A DNA stretch of 64,000 bases from an uncultured Planctomycetales bacterium (GCA_964401335.1 CAYNYK010000005.1:8362-72361); one strand, 5' to 3'. Positions 3,367-57,074 are shown, counted from the stretch's first letter. The notes: generated by a model not told the origin, from the sequence alone. Numbers and translations are program-made.

Positions 3367-4140
3367 CTATTTGCAGAAGACGAGCCAGCCGAACTTTTCC
3401 GGGCGGTGGAAATTGATGATACCCGGCGGCGACCAGGCGGTGTATTCATCAATCTGTTTGTCCGCCGGCCGATCGATGCGGTACAGGTTCCAGCGCCAGC
3501 GATCGCCGGCAACCGGGGGGTGGTTCGGGGCCTGAGCAAACTCGCCGAAGGGGATGGCGATTTCGACCGACCAGCGTTTGCACCCGGCCGGGTTCGAACC
3601 GCGCTGGTTACCAACAGTGCCTTCGACAGCGACGGCCGAGTGCAGTCCCTCGCAGGTGTATTCCTTAATGAAGAATTTGATCCATTTGCCCTGTCCGGCA
3701 TTGAGCACGTAGGCGTCAAACACCGTGTTGTTCGGGCTGATTTCCAATTCGAGATAAGATTTACCATCGGCGTTGTCGTCGATGAAAACCTCGACCACCT
3801 CATGCTTGAAAATCGATGCATCCCGTTCGGTTTCGCTGGCCCAGATATCGTCATCGATGCAGTCGAAGGCGACAAACAGGTGTTTGTCGGACCATAAGGC
3901 CCGCGCGGTTACCGGCTGGCGGGGTGGCCGCCCCGTGTCGGCCAGGACCAGATTGACCACTTGGGCTTTTTGCCAGACCGCGTCGTTGAGACGCCCGTCA
4001 ATCACCGGCGATTGCTCGGTGTATTGACAACGGTAAACCGGACCCGCCAGAGGGGCTTGCTGGCAACCGGCGGCGAGGAAAATAGACACACAACCCGTTA
4101 TAAACAATCCAAACTTGATGTTCATGATCCGCTCCTTCAT
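3367..4140 (-). CDS. Lipoprotein with carbohydrate-binding family 9 / DOMON-like domain
   Basis: Lipobox FLAAGC. IDGRLND.VW..A, LWSD..L.VAF.C.D, EVFID, and W..EIAIPF are typical of CBM9-like domains. Confidence 0.65.
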   Translation of the reverse strand: MKERIMNIKFGLFITGCVSIFLAAGCQQAPLAGPVYRCQYTEQSPVIDGRLNDAVWQKAQVVNLVLADTGRPPRQPVTARALWSDKHLFVAFDCIDDDIWASETERDASIFKHEVVEVFIDDNADGKSYLELEISPNNTVFDAYVLNAGQGKWIKFFIKEYTCEGLHSAVAVEGTVGNQRGSNPAGCKRWSVEIAIPFGEFAQAPNHPPVAGDRWRWNLYRIDRPADKQIDEYTAWSPPGIINFHRPEKFGWLVFCK

Positions 4141-4154
4141 GTTCTTGAACTATA

Positions 4155-5099
4155 TCAATCACCCGGCCGACAGGCCCGGATAATATCCTCGGCCCCGGCG
4201 GCGCGGAGGTCGGCCACCACGTTGTTCACTAATCCTACCATATCCGAAACCGGTTGGTGAGAGGAGGCCCGGGCCTCTTTTTGAGCTTTGGGATCGATGA
4301 CCAGGGCATCGCAGTATAACTGTCCACCTTCGACACGCACGTAGACCGCGACGGGGGCCCGGCATCCAGCGTCGAGTTCGGCCAGAATCCGCCGCTCGCA
4401 ATTGACGGCCGTTGCCGTCGGCTCATCATGTATGGGGCTGAGAATCTCGGCTAGTCGGCCATCGTCACATCGGCCTTCGAGGGCCAAGGCCCCTTGCCCC
4501 GGCGCCGGCAGCATCAGCGACAGATCGAGCACCTGCGTTATTTCGCTTTCCAGGCCGACTCGTTTCAGGCCGGCGACCGCCAGGATCGCGCCCGCACAAT
4601 CTCCACGGCGGACCTTGCGGATGCGCGTGTCCACGTTGCCGCGCAAGGCGACGAAACTCAAATCGCCGCGCCGTCGGAGCAATTGGGCCTGACGCCGCAG
4701 GCTGGTCGTGCCCACCTTGCCGCCCCCGGGCAGTTCCTCAAAGGGACGGCCGTCGGCGGAGATAAAGGTGTCGCGTGGATCCTCGCGCGCCGGCCAAGCG
4801 AGGACGGCCAATCCATCATGAAGCTTTGTGGGCAGATCCTTGGCCGAATGCACCGCCAGGTCGATCGAGCCGTTGAGCAGGGCCTCTTGAAGCTCTTCGG
4901 TGAACAATCCCTTGCCGCCAATTTCAGGCAGCGGGCGGCCGCGCAGCCGATCACCCGTGGTGGTGATGATCTGTTGACGGATTCGCAGGCGAGGATGGAC
5001 TTCGGTCAGCCGGTCGATCACCCATTGGGTCTGGGCGATGGCCAGCTTCGAGCCGCGCGTCCCGACGACGAGCGTATCACTATGGCCGGTTGTGCTCAC
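4155..5099 (-). CDS. hemC: Porphobilinogen deaminase (hydroxymethylbilane synthase)
   Basis: VVGTRGSKLAIAQT, GDR..........GGKGLFTEEL, RGNVDTR, LPAPGQGALA. GTGA overlap with the upstream dehydrogenase gene. Confidence 0.93.
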   Translation of the reverse strand: MSTTGHSDTLVVGTRGSKLAIAQTQWVIDRLTEVHPRLRIRQQIITTTGDRLRGRPLPEIGGKGLFTEELQEALLNGSIDLAVHSAKDLPTKLHDGLAVLAWPAREDPRDTFISADGRPFEELPGGGKVGTTSLRRQAQLLRRRGDLSFVALRGNVDTRIRKVRRGDCAGAILAVAGLKRVGLESEITQVLDLSLMLPAPGQGALALEGRCDDGRLAEILSPIHDEPTATAVNCERRILAELDAGCRAPVAVYVRVEGGQLYCDALVIDPKAQKEARASSHQPVSDMVGLVNNVVADLRAAGAEDIIRACRPGD

Positions 5100-7452: not shown

Positions 7453-7473
7453 CGGATCAGCATTCAGCGGTCA
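7453..7473 (-). repeat. Phased heptanucleotide repeat (TGANNGC)x3, minus-strand orientation
   Basis: TCA at 7457, 7464 and 7471 (period 7). Reverse-complement units are tgaccgc/tgaatgc/tgatccg. The array starts 6 nt after the methyltransferase stop. Confidence 0.7.
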
Positions 7474-7664
7474 GCTTGCAGTAATCGGCGTTCGGCATTG
7501 CGGGAATGTTCATGAGCTTGGGGAACACGAAGCGGAAGTTGCTCCCGGTCGCCAGCGCGGTATAGTGCATGGTGTTCACCAGCTTTCACGGAGTTTCGGG
7601 GCCTCCGCGCAAGCGGCCGTTACGGCCTCCATATTCCCGCCCCGGCCAGTAGAAAGGTGGAACC

Positions 7665-9222: not shown

Positions 9223-9554
9223 TTGGGAGTGAACGAGGGGCGTCGCCGGAGTCGGTAGTCGAACGATTCGTGCCCCGCCTCGACCGGATTTACGAGTTAC
9301 AACAAATGTCCAAGTCCTCACGGGTAGCATGAGACGCTGCCGCCCATGGACGGCCTGGCAAACGAATTACTGGATCATGTAAGGGCATGCCATCGGGGGG
9401 GCTACCTATTTCGATGACCATTTGATTTTCCAGCTTGGGTTTCTCGGTACCAAGAGTGCATTTCCCACGTCAACCAACTTTTTGAGGTATCTGTACCCAT
9501 TTTTCCGTCGCCTATATGATGGGAGATGAGGAAAGGATATTGGGAGGCGTTGGG

Positions 9555-23223: not shown

Positions 23224-23694
23224 GGCCGCGCTGGCGAGCAAAAACAATCCCAAGTAAGTCGGAATCCGCCGCGCTATCTTTCCTCGGTTGCACCCGATGG
23301 CGGTCCGCACGGGCTAGGGTATATCCACGGGATCAAAAAAGTCGATCCCGACGAATGGTTCTTCAAGGCCCATTTCTATCAGGATCCCGTCTGCCCCGGC
23401 TCGCTCGGCCTGGAATCGTTTCTGCAGCTGCTCAAGATCGTCGCCTTGGAAAAATGGGGCTCTACGCTGAACGCTACCCATCGCTTCACGCCGATCCTGC
23501 TCGGCGCCGCCCACCGCTGGCAGTATCGAGGCCAGATCCTTCCCACCGGCAAGCTCGTGGAAGTCGAGGCCATCATCACCGAAATGCGCGAACAACCCTC
23601 GCCACTGATCAAAGCCGACGGTTTCCTCAAAATCGATGGCACCATAATCTACGAAATGCTTGATTTCGGGATCGCGATGGTTCCCGCGGAGTAA
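23224..23694 (+). pseudogene. 5'-truncated FabA-type (PKS/PUFA-synthase-like) dehydratase hot-dog domain remnant
   Basis: The in-frame translation reads ..APDGGPHGLGYIHGIKKVDPDEWFFKAHFYQDPVCPGSLGLESFLQL.., which is the FabA active-site motif. The frame opens right after a TAA at 23221. There is no ATG, GTG or TTG before the TTG at 23446, which lies downstream of the catalytic His. Confidence 0.55.
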
Positions 23695-23844
23695 TGGCCG
23701 ATCGGATTTAAGTCCACTGTAGGCAGAACCTACGGGCTTGTGCGCCTATGATTTGTAAACCCTTGCCAGTCAATCATCTATGAGTCCTTCCCGCTTCTCC
23801 CGGGATAATGTTATAAAAAAGGAACGAAAATACGAAAACCTTCG

Positions 23845-23873
23845 TTGCTTTTACGAAGAACTTCGTATATATT
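23845..23873 (+). promoter_or_regulatory. Predicted blaI promoter with dyad operator in the spacer
   Basis: TTGCTT (23845-50), 17 nt, TATATT (23868-73). The spacer contains the perfect dyad TACGAAG-aa-CTTCGTA (23852-23867). A second weaker dyad, acgaa-aacc-ttcgt, lies at 23832-23845. Confidence 0.5.
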
Positions 23874-23880
23874 AAAGATA

Positions 23881-23908
23881 GCTTTCAGGGGTCAGTAGTC
23901 AGCACTCA
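23881..23908 (-). repeat. Phased heptanucleotide repeat (TGANNGC)x4, minus-strand orientation
   Basis: TCA at 23885, 23892, 23899 and 23906 (period 7). Reverse-complement units are tgagtgc/tgactac/tgacccc/tgaaagc. Confidence 0.7.
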
Positions 23909-24068
23909 GTGATTTACGGAGGCCGGCAATAGCGGATAAGCAGGATCGGGGGTTTGAAAGTGGGAGGCATCAGAATACGGGGTTCTTCCCCCCGTCTCCC
24001 ATCGCCCCCTAATAAACGGCGAACGCGTTGTTTGTCGCCGCGTAAAGAACTCAAGGAGTAAAAGGAAG

Positions 24069-24443: not shown

Positions 24444-24570
24444 GAGAATGCGTAACGCGTATCACCTGCCAGCCCGAAGCGCAAGCGAGGGAAACATCCC
24501 AGAGGTAAACGAGGGGGCGAAAGGGAGACAAGGAGAGGGGGACATGACCAACACAGGATAAGCCGAATAC

Positions 24571-24608
24571 TGAATGCGATTGGCTGATTGCTGACATCTG
24601 TCAACTGA
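24571..24608 (+). repeat. Phased heptanucleotide repeat (TGANNGC)x5-6, plus-strand orientation
   Basis: TGA at 24571, 24585, 24592 and 24606, with degenerate units at 24578 and 24599 (period 7). Located in the blaI-blaR1 spacer. Confidence 0.7.
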
Positions 24609-24632
24609 AGGCTCTTTCGAAAGGGAAGCACA

Positions 24633-27600
24633 ATGGACACTTTCGCATCGATGTTGACGCATCCGCTGGTGCAGCGCCTGGGGTGGGCCTTGCTGCACTC
24701 GCTCTGGCAGGGGCTGTTGGCGAGCCTGTTACTGGGATTTTTCCTTTTCTTCGTGCGCCGCCGGTCGGCCGGCGCGCGTTATCTCTGCTCGTGTGCGGCC
24801 TTGATGCTGTCCCTGGCCATGCCGACGGCCACCCTATTCCTCGTCCACGTTCCGCACCATGCGGGGTGGATATCGCCCGCTCCTTCTGAACTCCCCTTGC
24901 CAAGCGAGGCACCCAATGAAACTCCGGCATACAGCCCCGGGATGATTGAGGCGAGTATTCCGCCCCGCGCAATGCCGCCATCGGCCGTCATACCGGTTAC
25001 ACCAACAACGCCTTCGTCGGTGGGTATCTCCGAACGTCTCGAACCGTACCTGCCCTGGGCGGTCTTGCTCTGGCTGGTTGGCGTGTGCATTTTATCGCTG
25101 CGCTTGCTCGGCGGTTGGGTCAAGGTCCAGCGGATCAAGCGGCGTTGCGTGCAGCCGGCCGCCGCCCAATGGCAGGAAATGCTCGATAATCTGATGCACC
25201 AGTTGCGAATTTCGCGTCCCGTGCGGCTGCTGGAATCTGCGCTCGTGCAGGCCCCGGCCGCCATCGGTTGGCTCAAGCCGGTCATTCTCCTGCCCGCCTG
25301 CGCCCTGTCCGGCCTGACGCCCGATCAATTGCGGATGATCCTGGCTCACGAACTGGCCCACATCCGCCGTTACGATTACCTCGTCAATCTGCTCCAGACG
25401 GTCATCGAGACTCTGCTGTTTTATCACCCGGCCGTCTGGTGGATTTCCCGCCGTATCCGCGCCGAGCGGGAAAACTGCTGTGACGACATCGCCGTCGCCG
25501 CCGGCGGCCGCCCGCTCGACTACGCCCGGGCACTTACCGAGTTGGAATCCCTTCGCGGCCCGTCCCCGTCCCTGGTCGCCGCCGCCTCCGGCGGCTCGCT
25601 GCTGGAACGCATCCGACGCATCCTGAATCTCCCCTCCGCCGGTCACAATTATCTCAGCCGCTCGCTGGCCGGCTTGTTATTAATCTCCATCATACTCACC
25701 GCAACCATCAGCCTGCATCTCTATTCCGATGTAGGATGGGCATCGGAAGTCCCATCCACCACCCGGCCGACCAACGACGACCCCTCTTCCGAACAGGTCC
25801 TAAACGTGACCTTTCGAGACGCCGGCGACCTCAACCAACTGGTCCGCAGCGGCGGCAACTGGAAAATCAAAAACAACGAACTGCTCGGCACCTGCGGCGG
25901 CGATCAAAGCTGGGCCACCTGTCGCACCTCCTTCAAACGGATTTCTTCGGTCCTGATTCGCGGGCAAATCGTGCCGCCAAGTACGCAGAATTTCCGTGTC
26001 TGGGTCGGTCCGATTCACCTGATTTTCAACTGGGAAATGGCCGACCAGAACCATTACCGCACCAACCAGGAACTGACCGTGACCCAACCCCACGCTTTGA
26101 CCGCGGGGCAATGGCACGATATCGAGTTTAAGCAGAATGATAACAAGGTGGTTGTTACGGTCGATGGAAAAACCGTCTACCAGACCACGGCCGAGTTGGC
26201 CGGCACAATCTCCGTGCAGTCCGCCTGGAACTCCACCATCGCTGTTCAACAAATACGCATCGTCGGCGTACCTGACCCGGCCGTCAGGGTGGAGCCGCTG
26301 GCCAAACCACTTCCTGATGCCGCCCCACTTACGCGCCAACCAGACGCGGTCGCGCGCAAGCCCAAGCCTGATCTATCGAAATGCGGAACCCTCACCACCA
26401 AGGTGACCGATCGCGACGGCCAACCCGCGGAGGATGTGAGCGTATTTATCATTTCCGCGGACCAGTCCGCCGGGCTCGTACAAACAAACCAGGAGGGTAT
26501 CTTCAGTTCGGATCATGCTCCGGCCGGCCGTTACACCGTCGTGGCTTTCAAAGGCAACAGGCCTCCGGCCAAGGGATGGAAAGATCATCAGGGATACCTC
26601 ATGGGCGCGAAGCGCGACGTGCAGGTCACGGCCGGCGAAACCACCACCGTGCAGTTGCAGCCGCCCGGGACGGCCAACCTGGATGTCACCTTGGCCAAAC
26701 CCGATCCTTACCACCTGGAGTGGGGCATTGTGTTGCTGGCTCTCTCGCCCATCGAACTGCCTACCGGGCAGACGGGGAAAGCCGCCGCTTTTCCGATACC
26801 CGCCGATCTGCTGGGTATGTTTTTCGTCGAGCCGGGCAAGCCCTGCACCATCCACAACCTGCCCGAAGGCCTGATTCACGTCCGGGCCACTCCTTCCGAT
26901 CCCGGCCCGATGGACTTCTCGTCAAATATCGCCATCACAATCCGAGCCGGGCAGAAGAATACGCTCGACCTGCAACTGACGCCCCGTAACCGCTTCGAGG
27001 GCAAACTGGAGTTCGATAAGGATGTTAAGATCGGCTTATCCGCTCCGGCGGGGGACACGAAAGACGGGGTTTCTCTGTTGACGATGAAATTCAGCAGGCG
27101 GGATAACCAACTGTCCGCGGAGATGAAATTGGGCGTCATTTCCTGGCCTAAAACGAAGTGGCGATTCACGGTGGATCTGCTGGACAGTCAAGGCAAGGTG
27201 CTGAAATCAATCCAAAATATCTTTGAAAACAGCGGGATTGCATTAGGTTTCGCTTTGTTGGGCTCCGAAAAACTTGAATTAAATCTGGGCCCCTGGTCGG
27301 ATGTCTCCGCCGCCACGCGCTTCGCGGTCAGCATCGAGCAAATCAGTTCACAAACCCCCACCCGGCCGGCGGCCGTTCCCGCCGAATTCGACTTAAATCA
27401 AAAAGAGCTATTTTTCCACGGCCTTGATCTGAGTAAGGCGCCGGTTGAAACAAATGTTCGGCGACTGCCGGACTTGTGGCATGCAGTCCCGCCCGGTAGT
27501 GGATCCTACGAAAGACGGCCGGAAGTGCAACTATTCGGTTCTGGTTTGGACGGTGTTGTGTATTGGCTACCAGACCAGAACATGTTCTATGTTCAACATG

Positions 27601-52275: not shown

Positions 52276-53184
52276 TTACTTTTTCCGCAATCGGAATTCG
52301 ACCACACGCTCGTGCGGATCGCTGCAGTTGCGATGGGCCTTGACGTATTCCCAGCGGCCGGCGTCCTCGAAGATTTGCCGGACGGCCGCGTGCTGATCGT
52401 AACCGATCTCCGCCAGCAGCAAACCGCCATCAGCCAGAACGGCCGGGGCCTCGTTTGCCAGACGACGGTACATGCCCAAACCGTCGCCGCCGGGCGGGAC
52501 CAGGGCGATTCGCGGCTCATGCTCGCGCACGTTGGGCGGAAGCGTCGGCCATTGCTGCTCGCTGATATACGGCGGGTTGGTGGCAAGCACATCGAATCCG
52601 CCGGGTGGTACCACTTCGGCCGACAGGGTCACACCGTCGGCCTGGACCAGCCGCATACGATCGCCCACGTCATGCCGCTGCACGTTACCGGCCGTAACGG
52701 CCAGAGCGTCCGCGGAGATATCGCTGCCCACCACCCGGGCGTTGGCCGCGTATTTTGCGATGGCAACACCCACGCAACCGCTACCCGTACCCAGGTCCAA
52801 AATGTTCCACTCGCGCAAGGGCTCGGCCCGGCACAACTCGATTACCCGTTGCACAAGGGCCTCCGTCTCCGGCCGGGGAATCAGGACGGCCGGCGTTACG
52901 GTAAATTCCAACGAGTAAAACTCCCGCTGACCCAGCAGATAAGCGACCGGAGTATGTTCGCCGGCCTGGCGGACCAGTTCGCGAAACGCCGCCCGCTGTT
53001 CGTCCGTCGGCTCGGTTTCCCAGCGCGTGTACAGATCGATCTTCTTGCAGCCGCAGGCGCGGGCCAGAAGCAGTTCGGCCGTCAACCGCCCGCCCTCGAC
53101 CTGTCGCTCGTTAAACCATTGGGTCGTCCATTGCAGCAGACGGCCGACGGTCCAGGTGGTTTGTTGTTCTGACGTTTCGGACAT
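52276..53184 (-). CDS. prmC: Release-factor glutamine N5-methyltransferase
   Basis: ILDLGTGSGCVG (SAM motif I) and ATNPPYI (NPPY). Start moved to MSETSEQ. Confidence 0.88.
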   Translation of the reverse strand: MSETSEQQTTWTVGRLLQWTTQWFNERQVEGGRLTAELLLARACGCKKIDLYTRWETEPTDEQRAAFRELVRQAGEHTPVAYLLGQREFYSLEFTVTPAVLIPRPETEALVQRVIELCRAEPLREWNILDLGTGSGCVGVAIAKYAANARVVGSDISADALAVTAGNVQRHDVGDRMRLVQADGVTLSAEVVPPGGFDVLATNPPYISEQQWPTLPPNVREHEPRIALVPPGGDGLGMYRRLANEAPAVLADGGLLLAEIGYDQHAAVRQIFEDAGRWEYVKAHRNCSDPHERVVEFRLRKK

Positions 53185-53282
53185 AACCGTTACTATACCG
53201 AAGAACTCAAAAACCTTGCAATAACACAGCGTTCTTGCCGCGAACCCGATGTAATCCGCGGAATACGGCATGAGGGAGAGAC

Positions 53283-53429
53283 AGAGAGATGGAGAGAGGG
53301 AGAAAAATCAAAGATACCCCATTATTCTCGAAAGTAGATCCTCATAATTCGTCCCCCATCGCGAAAGTGTATGACATAGGATGCGCAGATACATTGAAAA
53401 TCATGGAACTTGGTTCTCTCCATCTCTCT
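53283..53429. repeat. 15-bp perfect inverted repeat pair separated by 117 bp
   Basis: agagagatggagaga (53283-53297) and tctctccatctctct (53415-53429). The intervening sequence contains a degenerate copy of the tcccccatc.cgaaa module. Confidence 0.6.
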
Positions 53430-53515
53430 ATCACTCCGTCTGCTTCCTTACAATCCCCATCTTTCCTTCGCTGGTGCCGGCTGCGTCGCGTTCTTCTTGA
53501 TCCGACAACTGGCGG

Positions 53516-56476: not shown

Positions 56477-56542
56477 TACCGGACACCCTTGCAGGAAAAG
56501 CACCGAACAGAGCCGGTCTTCCGTTGCGGAATGGTCGACCAC

Positions 56543-56577
56543 TGAATGCTGAGCACTGATTGCTGACCGCTGATTGC
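56543..56577 (+). repeat. Phased heptanucleotide repeat (TGANNGC)x5, plus-strand orientation
   Basis: TGA at 56543, 56550, 56557, 56564 and 56571. Units are tgaatgc/tgagcac/tgattgc/tgaccgc/tgattgc. Confidence 0.8.
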
Positions 56578-56586
56578 TATAAAAAA

Positions 56587-56620
56587 ACGAACGCCGATAT
56601 TCCTCGACGTTCGTCTTTTT
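56587..56620. terminator. Bidirectional intrinsic terminator
   Basis: A7 - acgaacg ... cgttcgt - T5. An inner cga/tcg pairing shortens the loop. Confidence 0.6.
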
Positions 56621-56807
56621 GCCTCTGGACACGCAATGATGTACCACAAGATACTTCCAGAGGTCATGTTGGTCCCGGCAAGCGGGGAGATAGCTTGCGG
56701 GAAAGGAATCCTGCCACCGCTTCCGGCTACCGTCGCGTCCCCCGCAACGAACGTGTTAACCTTTGCGGCGGCTTAACGACCGTCGCGTTTCCGGGCCGAG
56801 CATCGGC

Positions 56808-57074
56808 TCACGCTGAGCCGGCATCCTCCTCCAGCATCTTACGCAAACGCGCGTTCTCGCGGCGCGTGGCTTCCAGATCAAATAACAGATATTTGATGGA
56901 GAGGCGCAGAAAATCGATACTTTCGTGCAGGGTGTTGACCGTCTTTTTCAGCTCGCGATGACGCTGCTTGGTTTCCTCGGCCAGCATGGCCAGCCGCTGA
57001 CGCTCTTCCTCGGGCAACGTGTCGATTTCCGCGACCAATTCGCTTAGTTTCTTTTGAAATGTGGTTTCGTCCAT
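56808..57074 (-). CDS. Small coiled-coil protein (88 aa)
   Basis: RBS gggggag 8 nt upstream of MDETTF. Heptad-rich E/K/L/R sequence. No known motif. Confidence 0.5.
   Translation of the reverse strand: MDETTFQKKLSELVAEIDTLPEEERQRLAMLAEETKQRHRELKKTVNTLHESIDFLRLSIKYLLFDLEATRRENARLRKMLEEDAGSA

Follow-up and report, generated by a model that had tools for sequence, protein, structure and literature searches.

The 64,000-nucleotide stretch of DNA from an uncultured Planctomycetales bacterium (GCA_964401335.1 CAYNYK010000005.1:8362-72361), which we call the window, contains four arrays of a heptanucleotide direct repeat, in which a CTGA core is followed by three variable bases and the units stand head to tail with a period of exactly 7 nt. 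These arrays, A to D, are real, strictly phased, far above chance expectation, intergenic and weakly structured. They are degenerate members (consensus R-CTGA-Y-N) of the class of CTGA-core heptanucleotide repeats; what is new is the degenerate planctomycete form, whereas the class itself has already been described. Our leading, though still tentative, reading is that the arrays may be a strand-specific, single-stranded binding platform for a protein or the ribosome, built via tandem duplication, and that the stop codons which they carry in three frames would be a by-product.

Array A (56535-56583, plus strand) holds five exact units at 56542-56576 (CTGAATG, CTGAGCA, CTGATTG, CTGACCG and CTGATTG), flanked by the degenerate units TCGACCA (56535-41) on the 5ʹ side and CTATAAA (56577-83) on the 3ʹ side. 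Array B (23875-23909, minus strand) runs from 23909 to 23882 as CTGAGTG, CTGACTA, CTGACCC and CTGAAAG, followed by CTATCTT. Array C (24563-24618, plus strand) starts with CCGAATA, continues at 24570-24611 with CTGAATG, CGATTGG, CTGATTG, CTGACAT, CTGTCAA and CTGAAGG, and ends with CTCTTTC; four of its six cores are exact, so that the array reported in the initial annotation, which had been made from the sequence alone, is present but its count of 'five to six units' was slightly generous. Array D (7454-7488, minus strand) begins with CCGATTA and comprises, from 7481 to 7454, CTGCAAG, CTGACCG, CTGAATG and CTGATCC, that is, three exact cores and one near core. All cores of arrays A and B are CTGA, and the remaining three positions vary in nearly every unit. 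The arrays have end features in common (YCGAnnA at the 5ʹ end, CTAT or CTAA at the 3ʹ end), and no similarity between their flanks was found beyond the heptads. Tandem Repeats Finder detected in array A a second-order period of 14 nt (3 copies, 85% matches), which points to growth via tandem duplication.

A scan for (TGANNGC)x3 with up to two mismatches gave 7 matches at 3 loci against 0.10 expected, and none of 100 shuffles reached 7; together with a direct reading of the loci, this bore out the four phased arrays in both orientations. With a threshold of at least 14 of 16 core matches, exactly four loci (A to D) were obtained, in comparison to 0.05 per whole-window Markov shuffle and 0.003 arrays in shuffles of the intergenic sequence alone. 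All four arrays fall within the 10.1% of the window outside the greedy map of open reading frames (ORFs), which we took as intergenic. Thus, the arrays are neither as infrequent as in shuffled sequence nor equally common inside coding sequence, the two outcomes that the initial annotation had named as speaking against it, and its statements that every array is intergenic and that their number is unlikely by chance stand. According to a motif-free scan for any 4-mer phased at least four times at periods of 5-11, the window contains just four arrays of any kind, two of which are CTGA/TCAG arrays of period 7, the remaining two being a GCG repeat in coding sequence and a GAGA repeat of period 8; no 4-mer besides CTGA shows the pattern of a fixed core with a variable spacer.

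Folding of the arrays on both strands gave minimum free energies of -3.5 to -7.6 kcal/mol with z-scores of -0.7 to +0.3, in agreement with the earlier claim that they are not hairpins. With z close to 0 on both strands, we ruled out a hairpin, a repetitive extragenic palindrome (REP), a bacterial interspersed mosaic element and an intrinsic terminator. An array of clustered regularly interspaced short palindromic repeats (CRISPR) was ruled out as well, since a period of 7 nt with a 3-nt variable part contrasts with repeats of ~24-48 nt and unique spacers. Across the window, no Rfam family reached the gathering score, around the arrays only chance-level matches appeared at E up to 1, and a tRNA search with ARAGORN found nothing over the arrays. 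Selection for unusually low structure is likewise unsupported by the arrays alone (z close to 0). The initiation region around array C (24540-24670) was less structured than its shuffles (z=+1.42, a worse fold than 187 of 200), which is a weak trend.

With respect to the neighbouring genes, arrays A and C are carried in the sense orientation by known transcripts, whereas arrays B and D are antisense. Array A is located in the 3ʹ untranslated region (3ʹUTR) of purQ, 59 nt past the stop codon (56476) and adjoining a terminator. Array C lies within the 189-nt spacer between blaI and blaR1, with 24 nt between the end of its last exact core and the ATG of the blaR1-like gene (24633). Directly 3ʹ of it is the ribosome-binding region of that gene (24612-24635, plus strand; CTCTTTCGAAAGGGAAGCACAATG), which combines a small hairpin in the minimum-free-energy fold with the Shine-Dalgarno (SD)-like GGGAAG; this segment is kept in the related loci L210, L211 and L212 (GGGAAGCAC[A/C]ATG), while the spacer upstream of it differs. 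Array B stands 160 nt upstream of blaI, pointing away from it and antisense to both flanking plus-strand genes, and it forms with array C an inverted pair around blaI (30 nt, 77% complementary). Array D starts 7 nt past the stop codon (7447) of a plus-strand gene for a DNA methylase; both of its neighbours are on the plus strand, and it is antisense to them. A sense orientation would result only from a small ORF of 40 aa (7457-7579, minus strand), which has no homologues besides itself and was rejected.

The initial annotation had found no element type matching these arrays; CTGA-core heptamers are, however, described in the literature (PMC4679880; bioRxiv 10.1101/2022.06.06.494920; PMC4692102). 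Direct repeats of the heptamer TAACTGA, equivalent to CTGATAA, were reported from marine Beggiatoaceae, Cyanobacteria and a few Bacteroidetes (MacGregor 2015, PMC4679880). They are mostly in the forward orientation, a few nucleotides from start codons, usually without a ribosome-binding site, in sets sometimes 'split' by related 7-mers, and binding by S1, Csp or CsrA-like proteins was proposed for them (PMC4679880). The window arrays resemble these repeats in the 7-nt period, the CTGA core, the short sets (2-6 units), the nearly exclusively intergenic location, the unstructured RNA and the presence of a stop codon in every frame when read forward; a forward orientation near a start codon, which often has no SD sequence, is moreover common to array C and to the degenerate arrays of the survey below. 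They differ in unit sequence, CTGATAA being absent among the ~19 units of the window, in the variation of the three positions outside the core, and in their Phycisphaerae-like planctomycete host, from a group outside that earlier study. A further difference is that only one of the four arrays is start-proximal and forward (array C, which has an SD-like segment), array A being 3ʹ of purQ and the other two antisense.

Heptanucleotide repeats have reportedly been noted in bacteria since the work on cyanobacterial short tandemly repeated repetitive (STRR) sequences. The units of the latter are CCCCAGT, TTGGTCA and CAACAGT. Like STRR and Nostoc heptamers, the window arrays are tandem, non-coding heptamers of a kind often near start codons or promoters; unlike the fixed units and long, near-perfect arrays of STRR, which belong to cyanobacteria, the window units are degenerate, number 4-6 per array and share only a 4-nt core. 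Heptamer repeats near start codons and promoters in Nostoc gave modest effects on a reporter when deleted, and their binding partner was not established (bioRxiv 10.1101/2022.06.06.494920). In the literature searched, we found no paper that resolves the mechanism of heptamer repeats.

We then consider the distribution of such arrays elsewhere. Genomes, one per species and 596 Gb in total, were scanned for five phased CTGA (20 fixed bases), for which our own calculation gives about one chance match. Phased CTGA arrays were present at at least 120 genome loci and at least 120 viral loci. The genome matches listed include Acidobacteriota, Planctomycetota (with Phycisphaerae), Verrucomicrobiota, Chloroflexota, Cyanobacteria, Bacteroidota, Gemmatimonadota and others, and the matches listed, to which all counts in this and the following paragraph refer, are of two kinds: perfect microsatellites, such as (CTGACCA)n, and degenerate arrays like those of the window, which we defined by at least 60% distinct units. 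Over 90 degenerate arrays the consensus is R-CTGA-Y-N, with Y at position 5 in 73% and R at position 7 in 68%; the position after TGA, for which the initial annotation had given W, is not W-biased in the window.

A long ORF started within 40 nt downstream of 17 of the 37 degenerate genome arrays, in comparison to 3 of 37 in the reverse control (p=0.0005), and the same was observed for degenerate viral arrays (27/53 versus 12/53, p=0.0045). Perfect arrays, taken as an internal control, had no significant start bias, either in genomes (12/95 versus 11/95) or in viruses (30/100 versus 20/100). An SD-like motif was missing in 33 of the 44 start-proximal degenerate cases, with the ATG often 0-9 nt past the last unit. 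Degenerate arrays between co-directional genes were sense rather than antisense at ratios of 14:3 (genomes) and 16:9 (viral contigs). Downstream of the arrays lie ordinary genes of many kinds, whose translations resemble recJ, rpoN, pheT, fmt, NAD kinase and others, and a long co-directional ORF ending within 50 nt upstream, found for 9 of 37 degenerate arrays, was uninformative. An ATG mini-ORF internal to the arrays was rejected: the CTGAATG units of arrays A and C do give six-codon ORFs (...D-C-stop), but ATG is not enriched and was the variable triplet in 6 of the 90 degenerate arrays. We also noticed that the viral contig L259 carries on its minus strand, at 3967-4008, 4862-4903 and 9336-9377, a short palindrome (CCGGAATCCGG-like), six CTGANNG units and then CTA, an ending that echoes the CTAT/CTAA ends of the window arrays.

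Comparison with relatives indicates a rapid turnover of the arrays, by gain and loss, from one related lineage to another. At the level of the population they are constant: array A is identical in L001-L003, and arrays B and C are identical in L217-L224 (8 population samples), with no copy-number variation among the samples, so that unit number, whose conservation among strains the initial annotation had proposed to check, is invariant. In L125, where PurQ is 90% identical, the 3ʹUTR can be aligned up to GACCACT, after which array A is absent or unrecognisable, and the PurQ-syntenic relatives L126-L129 have no arrays, synteny being gone at 71-73% identity. Array C is present in L211 and L217-L224, and an analogous array occurs in L212. 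In L210 (BlaI 98% identical) array C is absent and an unrelated 92-nt spacer is found, after which homology resumes at TTCGAAAGGGAAGCACAATG. Array B of L210 reads CTGAATT, CTGACTG, CTGACTA, CCGACCG, CTACAAG, with one extra unit and two decayed cores; between it and the window array, 3 of 16 core positions and 2 of 12 variable positions have changed. In L212 (BlaI 82% identical), CTGA heptads together with a palindrome occupy both sites as ~90-nt inverted copies around blaI. In each copy (3-94 and 635-725), CTGA heptads stand on both sides of a palindrome that has perfect 15-bp stems (CCCTTGACAAATTCC...GGAATTTGTCAAGGG) and two inner hairpins; the copies are 84-94% complementary to each other, and the palindrome is absent from the window. 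Relatives with 75-76% BlaI identity have no blaI-blaR1 spacer at all, and in the more distant loci L213-L216 the two genes abut or overlap and no arrays are found. The idea of a BlaI operator or another blaI-specific element was rejected on the grounds that distant blaI-blaR1 loci are without arrays and that arrays A and D are unrelated to blaI.

A sample chosen without regard to arrays (80 metagenome loci, L130-L209, picked via PurQ; 713 kb) contained 20 phased 4-mer arrays at period 7, in comparison to 0-8 at each of periods 5, 6 and 8-11. Their cores were varied (TCTG, TTCG, GCAAAC and others) and differed by lineage, and 3 of the 20 were CTGA/TCAG. At the threshold of 14/16 there were 6 CTGA arrays in 713 kb, or ~0.5 per 64 kb, so that the four arrays of the window represent a ~7-fold density. 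One of the CTGA arrays, in L163, ends 7 nt before the ATG of purQ. This sample suggests that heptad phasing is general and that the cores are partly lineage-specific, with CTGA the most recurrent across independent loci.

Four fixed next to three free positions are hard to obtain by neutral decay, and the bias in orientation and towards starts suggests a strand-specific role, most simply at the level of the transcript. The pattern within the arrays and the bias across phyla thus lead us to favour a phased platform for single-strand binding, and of the three roles offered by the initial annotation, a tandem array to which a protein would bind, as RNA or DNA, still fits best. Such arrays would originate in place in non-coding DNA, from units of 7 and 14 nt that multiply through tandem duplication or slippage, and the feature maintained would be one CTGA per 7 nt on one strand, which would make the array a row of sites of 4-6 nt at even distances, to be occupied by the ribosome or by a protein that binds single strands. 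Candidate binders are proteins of the S1, cold-shock-domain, KH or RRM type, or an oligomer that reads one motif per subunit in the manner of HutP. A sense array just before a start codon, as array C before the blaR1-like gene, would act on the mRNA and set translation initiation, either by offering a platform of weak structure for loading or standby, or by serving as a platform to which a repressor binds. UGA in three frames would be a consequence of the motif, and it may further impede ribosomes that arrive from upstream. The other three arrays (A, B and D) would be copies in other contexts, one in a 3ʹUTR before a terminator and two in antisense, and show no evident activity there. That the arrays are transcribed, that a factor binds them and that translation is affected are all steps that we infer.

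The protein HutP reads XAG triplets at 7-nt spacing, and its model RNA consists of XAG and a U4 spacer (PMC2425495). The arrays share with HutP and TRAP sites a short core, a fixed spacing and free spacer bases, and arrays A and B are directly 5ʹ of terminator hairpins; the core is, however, CUGA and not NAG, and the likeness is one of mechanism only. No homologue of HutP or TRAP was seen, although no search was aimed at one. Since the terminators at A and B end convergent genes, antitermination in the style of HutP or TRAP makes little sense there.

Several observations weigh against a single-strand binding platform. Array C is the only start-proximal sense array of the four in the window, and it has a conserved SD-like segment; no known transcript carries arrays B and D, antisense to both of their neighbours, in the CTGA sense. 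Array A is unrecognisable at 90% PurQ identity and array C is absent at 98% BlaI identity (L210), and in the one orthologous comparison at hand the cores of array B changed as often as the variable positions. Compared with shuffles of the same arrays, their RNAs show no reduction in structure, and no factor has been identified as a binder of the arrays. Genes are preferentially oriented along with replication, and the sense bias could therefore equally well be an effect of the replication strand, that is, of single-stranded DNA on the lagging template. Furthermore, our scans preset CTGA and yielded at least 120 loci each, so that the taxonomic spread and the primacy of CTGA are not bias-free; in the array-blind sample, only 3 of 20 period-7 arrays had a CTGA/TCAG core.

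A broader proposal, which we regard as rather doubtful, is that degenerate R-CUGA-Y-N arrays might be a cross-phylum, SD-independent signal for initiation or for loading of the ribosome or a protein, that a conserved single-strand RNA-binding component would read the 7-nt register, and that the signal would extend over Planctomycetota, Acidobacteriota, Verrucomicrobiota, Chloroflexota, Cyanobacteria, Bacteroidota, Beggiatoaceae and many phages, the arrays of the window being its Phycisphaerae version. The survey extends CTGA-core heptamers to planctomycetes, many other phyla and phages, and it separates a degenerate form, conserved in the core only, from the perfect form by its strand bias and its position abutting SD-less start codons; the role of bacterial heptamer repeats thereby becomes more sharply testable. 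If a factor reads the 7-nt register, this would amount to a widespread, unrecognised control of translation in phyla with weak use of Shine-Dalgarno sequences; if there is none, the arrays would still be a useful marker of fast intergenic turnover.

Alternatively, the arrays may be neutral or near-neutral slipped-strand by-products, that is, decaying heptanucleotide microsatellites tolerated only in intergenic DNA, where they cause no damage, and devoid of a function in this genome, which we consider possible, though on the unlikely side. Heptamers are the most abundant long simple-repeat class in prokaryotes according to Mrazek 2007, as cited in PMC4679880, and heptameric repeats are in excess in bacteria according to PMC4692102. 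The prevalence of period 7 with many different cores in the array-blind sample, the 14-nt higher-order repeat of array A, the one-unit indel in array B and the decay of its cores on a par with its spacers, the varying presence of arrays A and C between close relatives, and the even split of orientations in the window (2 sense, 2 antisense) are all consistent with this explanation. However, decay that randomises three positions should not spare the other four over 4-5 units, and no other 4-mer in the window behaves like CTGA. Among the matches listed, it is the degenerate arrays that are biased in orientation and towards starts, and not the perfect, microsatellite-like ones, and the same core recurs across phyla and phages. 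A comparison with contingency loci, exemplified by the 7-bp promoter repeats of H. influenzae hmw, is instructive in this respect. The window arrays share with them the 7-nt unit and the apparent growth by slippage (the 14-nt super-repeat in A, the difference of one unit between array B and its ortholog), whereas contingency repeats are perfect and hypervariable within populations, and the window units share only four of seven positions and show no copy-number polymorphism in the 8 population samples. The micro-satellite-like element suggested by the initial annotation was therefore partly right as to origin and wrong as to behaviour.

It is unlikely, in our estimate, that the arrays are sites in double-stranded DNA for a cooperative protein, one heptad per dimer, which would regulate promoters or organise DNA and for which orientation would be of little matter. 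The operator of the omega repressor of inc18 plasmids is of this type, being made of contiguous 7-bp WATCACW heptads bound by cooperative ribbon-helix-helix dimers. The window arrays are similar in their contiguous heptads, direct or inverted and variable in unit number, and the reverse-strand unit AATCAGC resembles WATCACW; it and GGTCAGC are near the omega heptad AATCACA. They differ at the key C/G position and in being chromosomal, dispersed and often transcript-oriented. The presence of both orientations in the window and the inverted pair of B and C around blaI, which recurs in L212 as the ~90-nt inverted copies, would fit such a protein. So would two further cases. In L168 (93-127) and L181, a heptad array with a TCTG core directly precedes a promoter close to the consensus (TTGACA, 16 nt, TATCCT), just before the -35 box, and the GTG of purQ follows 8 nt past the -10 box, which suggests a leaderless mRNA and a heptad array at the position of an UP-element. 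In the viral contig L299 (7231 nt), every intergenic region has two adjacent inverted heptad arrays (CTGATTA, CTGATCA, CTGACCA and CTGGTTA units), with a sense array just upstream of the SD sequence and ATG of each gene, and the pair would form long hairpins. On the other hand, the strand bias and the arrays that abut an ATG without room for a promoter favour a role at the level of the transcript, the blaI loci L213-L216 do without arrays, and no gene for a ribbon-helix-helix protein or other candidate linked to the arrays was noticed in the window.

Still less probable is a pad of UGA stops in three frames, which would halt stray or read-through ribosomes before a terminator (A and B) or release them shortly before a start codon and so permit re-initiation there (C and the arrays elsewhere that abut a start). 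The initial annotation had put this forward, and the property itself is true, as a period of 7 places TGA in three frames within three units. It is also true that, among the matches listed, many arrays end 0-9 nt before an SD-less ATG, a distance within the range where termination-reinitiation coupling works, as given in PMC10666635, and that an intrinsic terminator follows both array A and array B. Against it as an explanation stand the conserved C1, Y5 and R7, which are irrelevant to a stop codon, the 4-20 units per array where three would suffice, and arrays B and D, which are antisense to all known local genes; nor do TAA or TAG units replace the degenerate ones. The layout of an array followed by a terminator, suggested by A and B, was rejected as a general one (1/114 forward versus 5/114 reverse, among the matches listed), and an upstream ORF from which ribosomes could arrive is found for only the 9 of 37 degenerate arrays mentioned above. 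A fixed stop codon as a predictor of start proximity was likewise rejected for non-CTGA heptad arrays, where it had no clear effect (7/28 versus 61/340).

Finally, we regard it as highly improbable that a small mobile or invertible element accounts for the arrays, as its remnants, targets or termini, with a blaI cassette bounded by inverted arrays, for although the same 65-nt palindromic insert occurs in each L212 array with the composites inverted around blaI, the breakpoints of homology between the window and L210 lie at or near arrays, and the arrays share their end features, the window lacks the palindrome, any transposase or invertase nearby and any similarity of flanks beyond the heptads, arrays A and D have no partner, and no variant with an inversion or absence occurs in the 8 population samples.

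The host, which is known from metagenomes, is a planctomycete resembling Phycisphaerae: the best named relatives of its PurQ are from Phycisphaerae metagenome-assembled genomes (66-73% identity), and identical PurQ copies are present in several Logan assemblies. The terminator adjoining array A (56581-56620) is a bidirectional intrinsic one, composed of an A-run, the stem CGAACG...CGTTCG and a T-run, with a centroid fold in which the hairpin is accompanied by A/U-tract pairing, and it is common to purQ on the plus strand and a convergent 88-aa gene on the minus strand. The ~190 nt between this coiled-coil gene (56808-57074, minus strand) and the terminator have a strong predicted RNA fold (56578-56810, minus strand; -101.9 kcal/mol, z=-4.47, equalled by 0 of 200 shuffles), a candidate structured 3ʹUTR or small RNA for which the sole hint from Rfam was a chance-level Ms1/6S-like match (E=0.14).

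Downstream of array B, at a distance of ~22 nt, a terminator-like hairpin with a T-run is found on the minus strand (23829-23859; stem 23859-23839, tail TTTTCGTATT), and the same region, as an inverted repeat, doubles as the plus-strand terminator of a fabA-like gene. The latter (23446-23694, plus strand) has only the C-terminal half of the FabA-like hot-dog domain in open frame (Pfam positions 78-137 of 138) and appears to be frameshifted or truncated upstream. The part of the blaI-blaR1 spacer upstream of array C (24444-24569) is strikingly purine-rich (GAGGGAAAC...GAGGGGGCGAAAGGGAGACAAGGAGAGGGGGAC). Another purine-rich repeat, of period 8 (GAGGGAGA x4), abuts the start codon of the minus-strand gene 52276-53271; it lies at 53272-53297 and has a partner 117 nt away at 53415-53440 (26 nt, 88% complementary), and the two would sequester a CT-rich, SD-less mRNA leader in a long-range stem.

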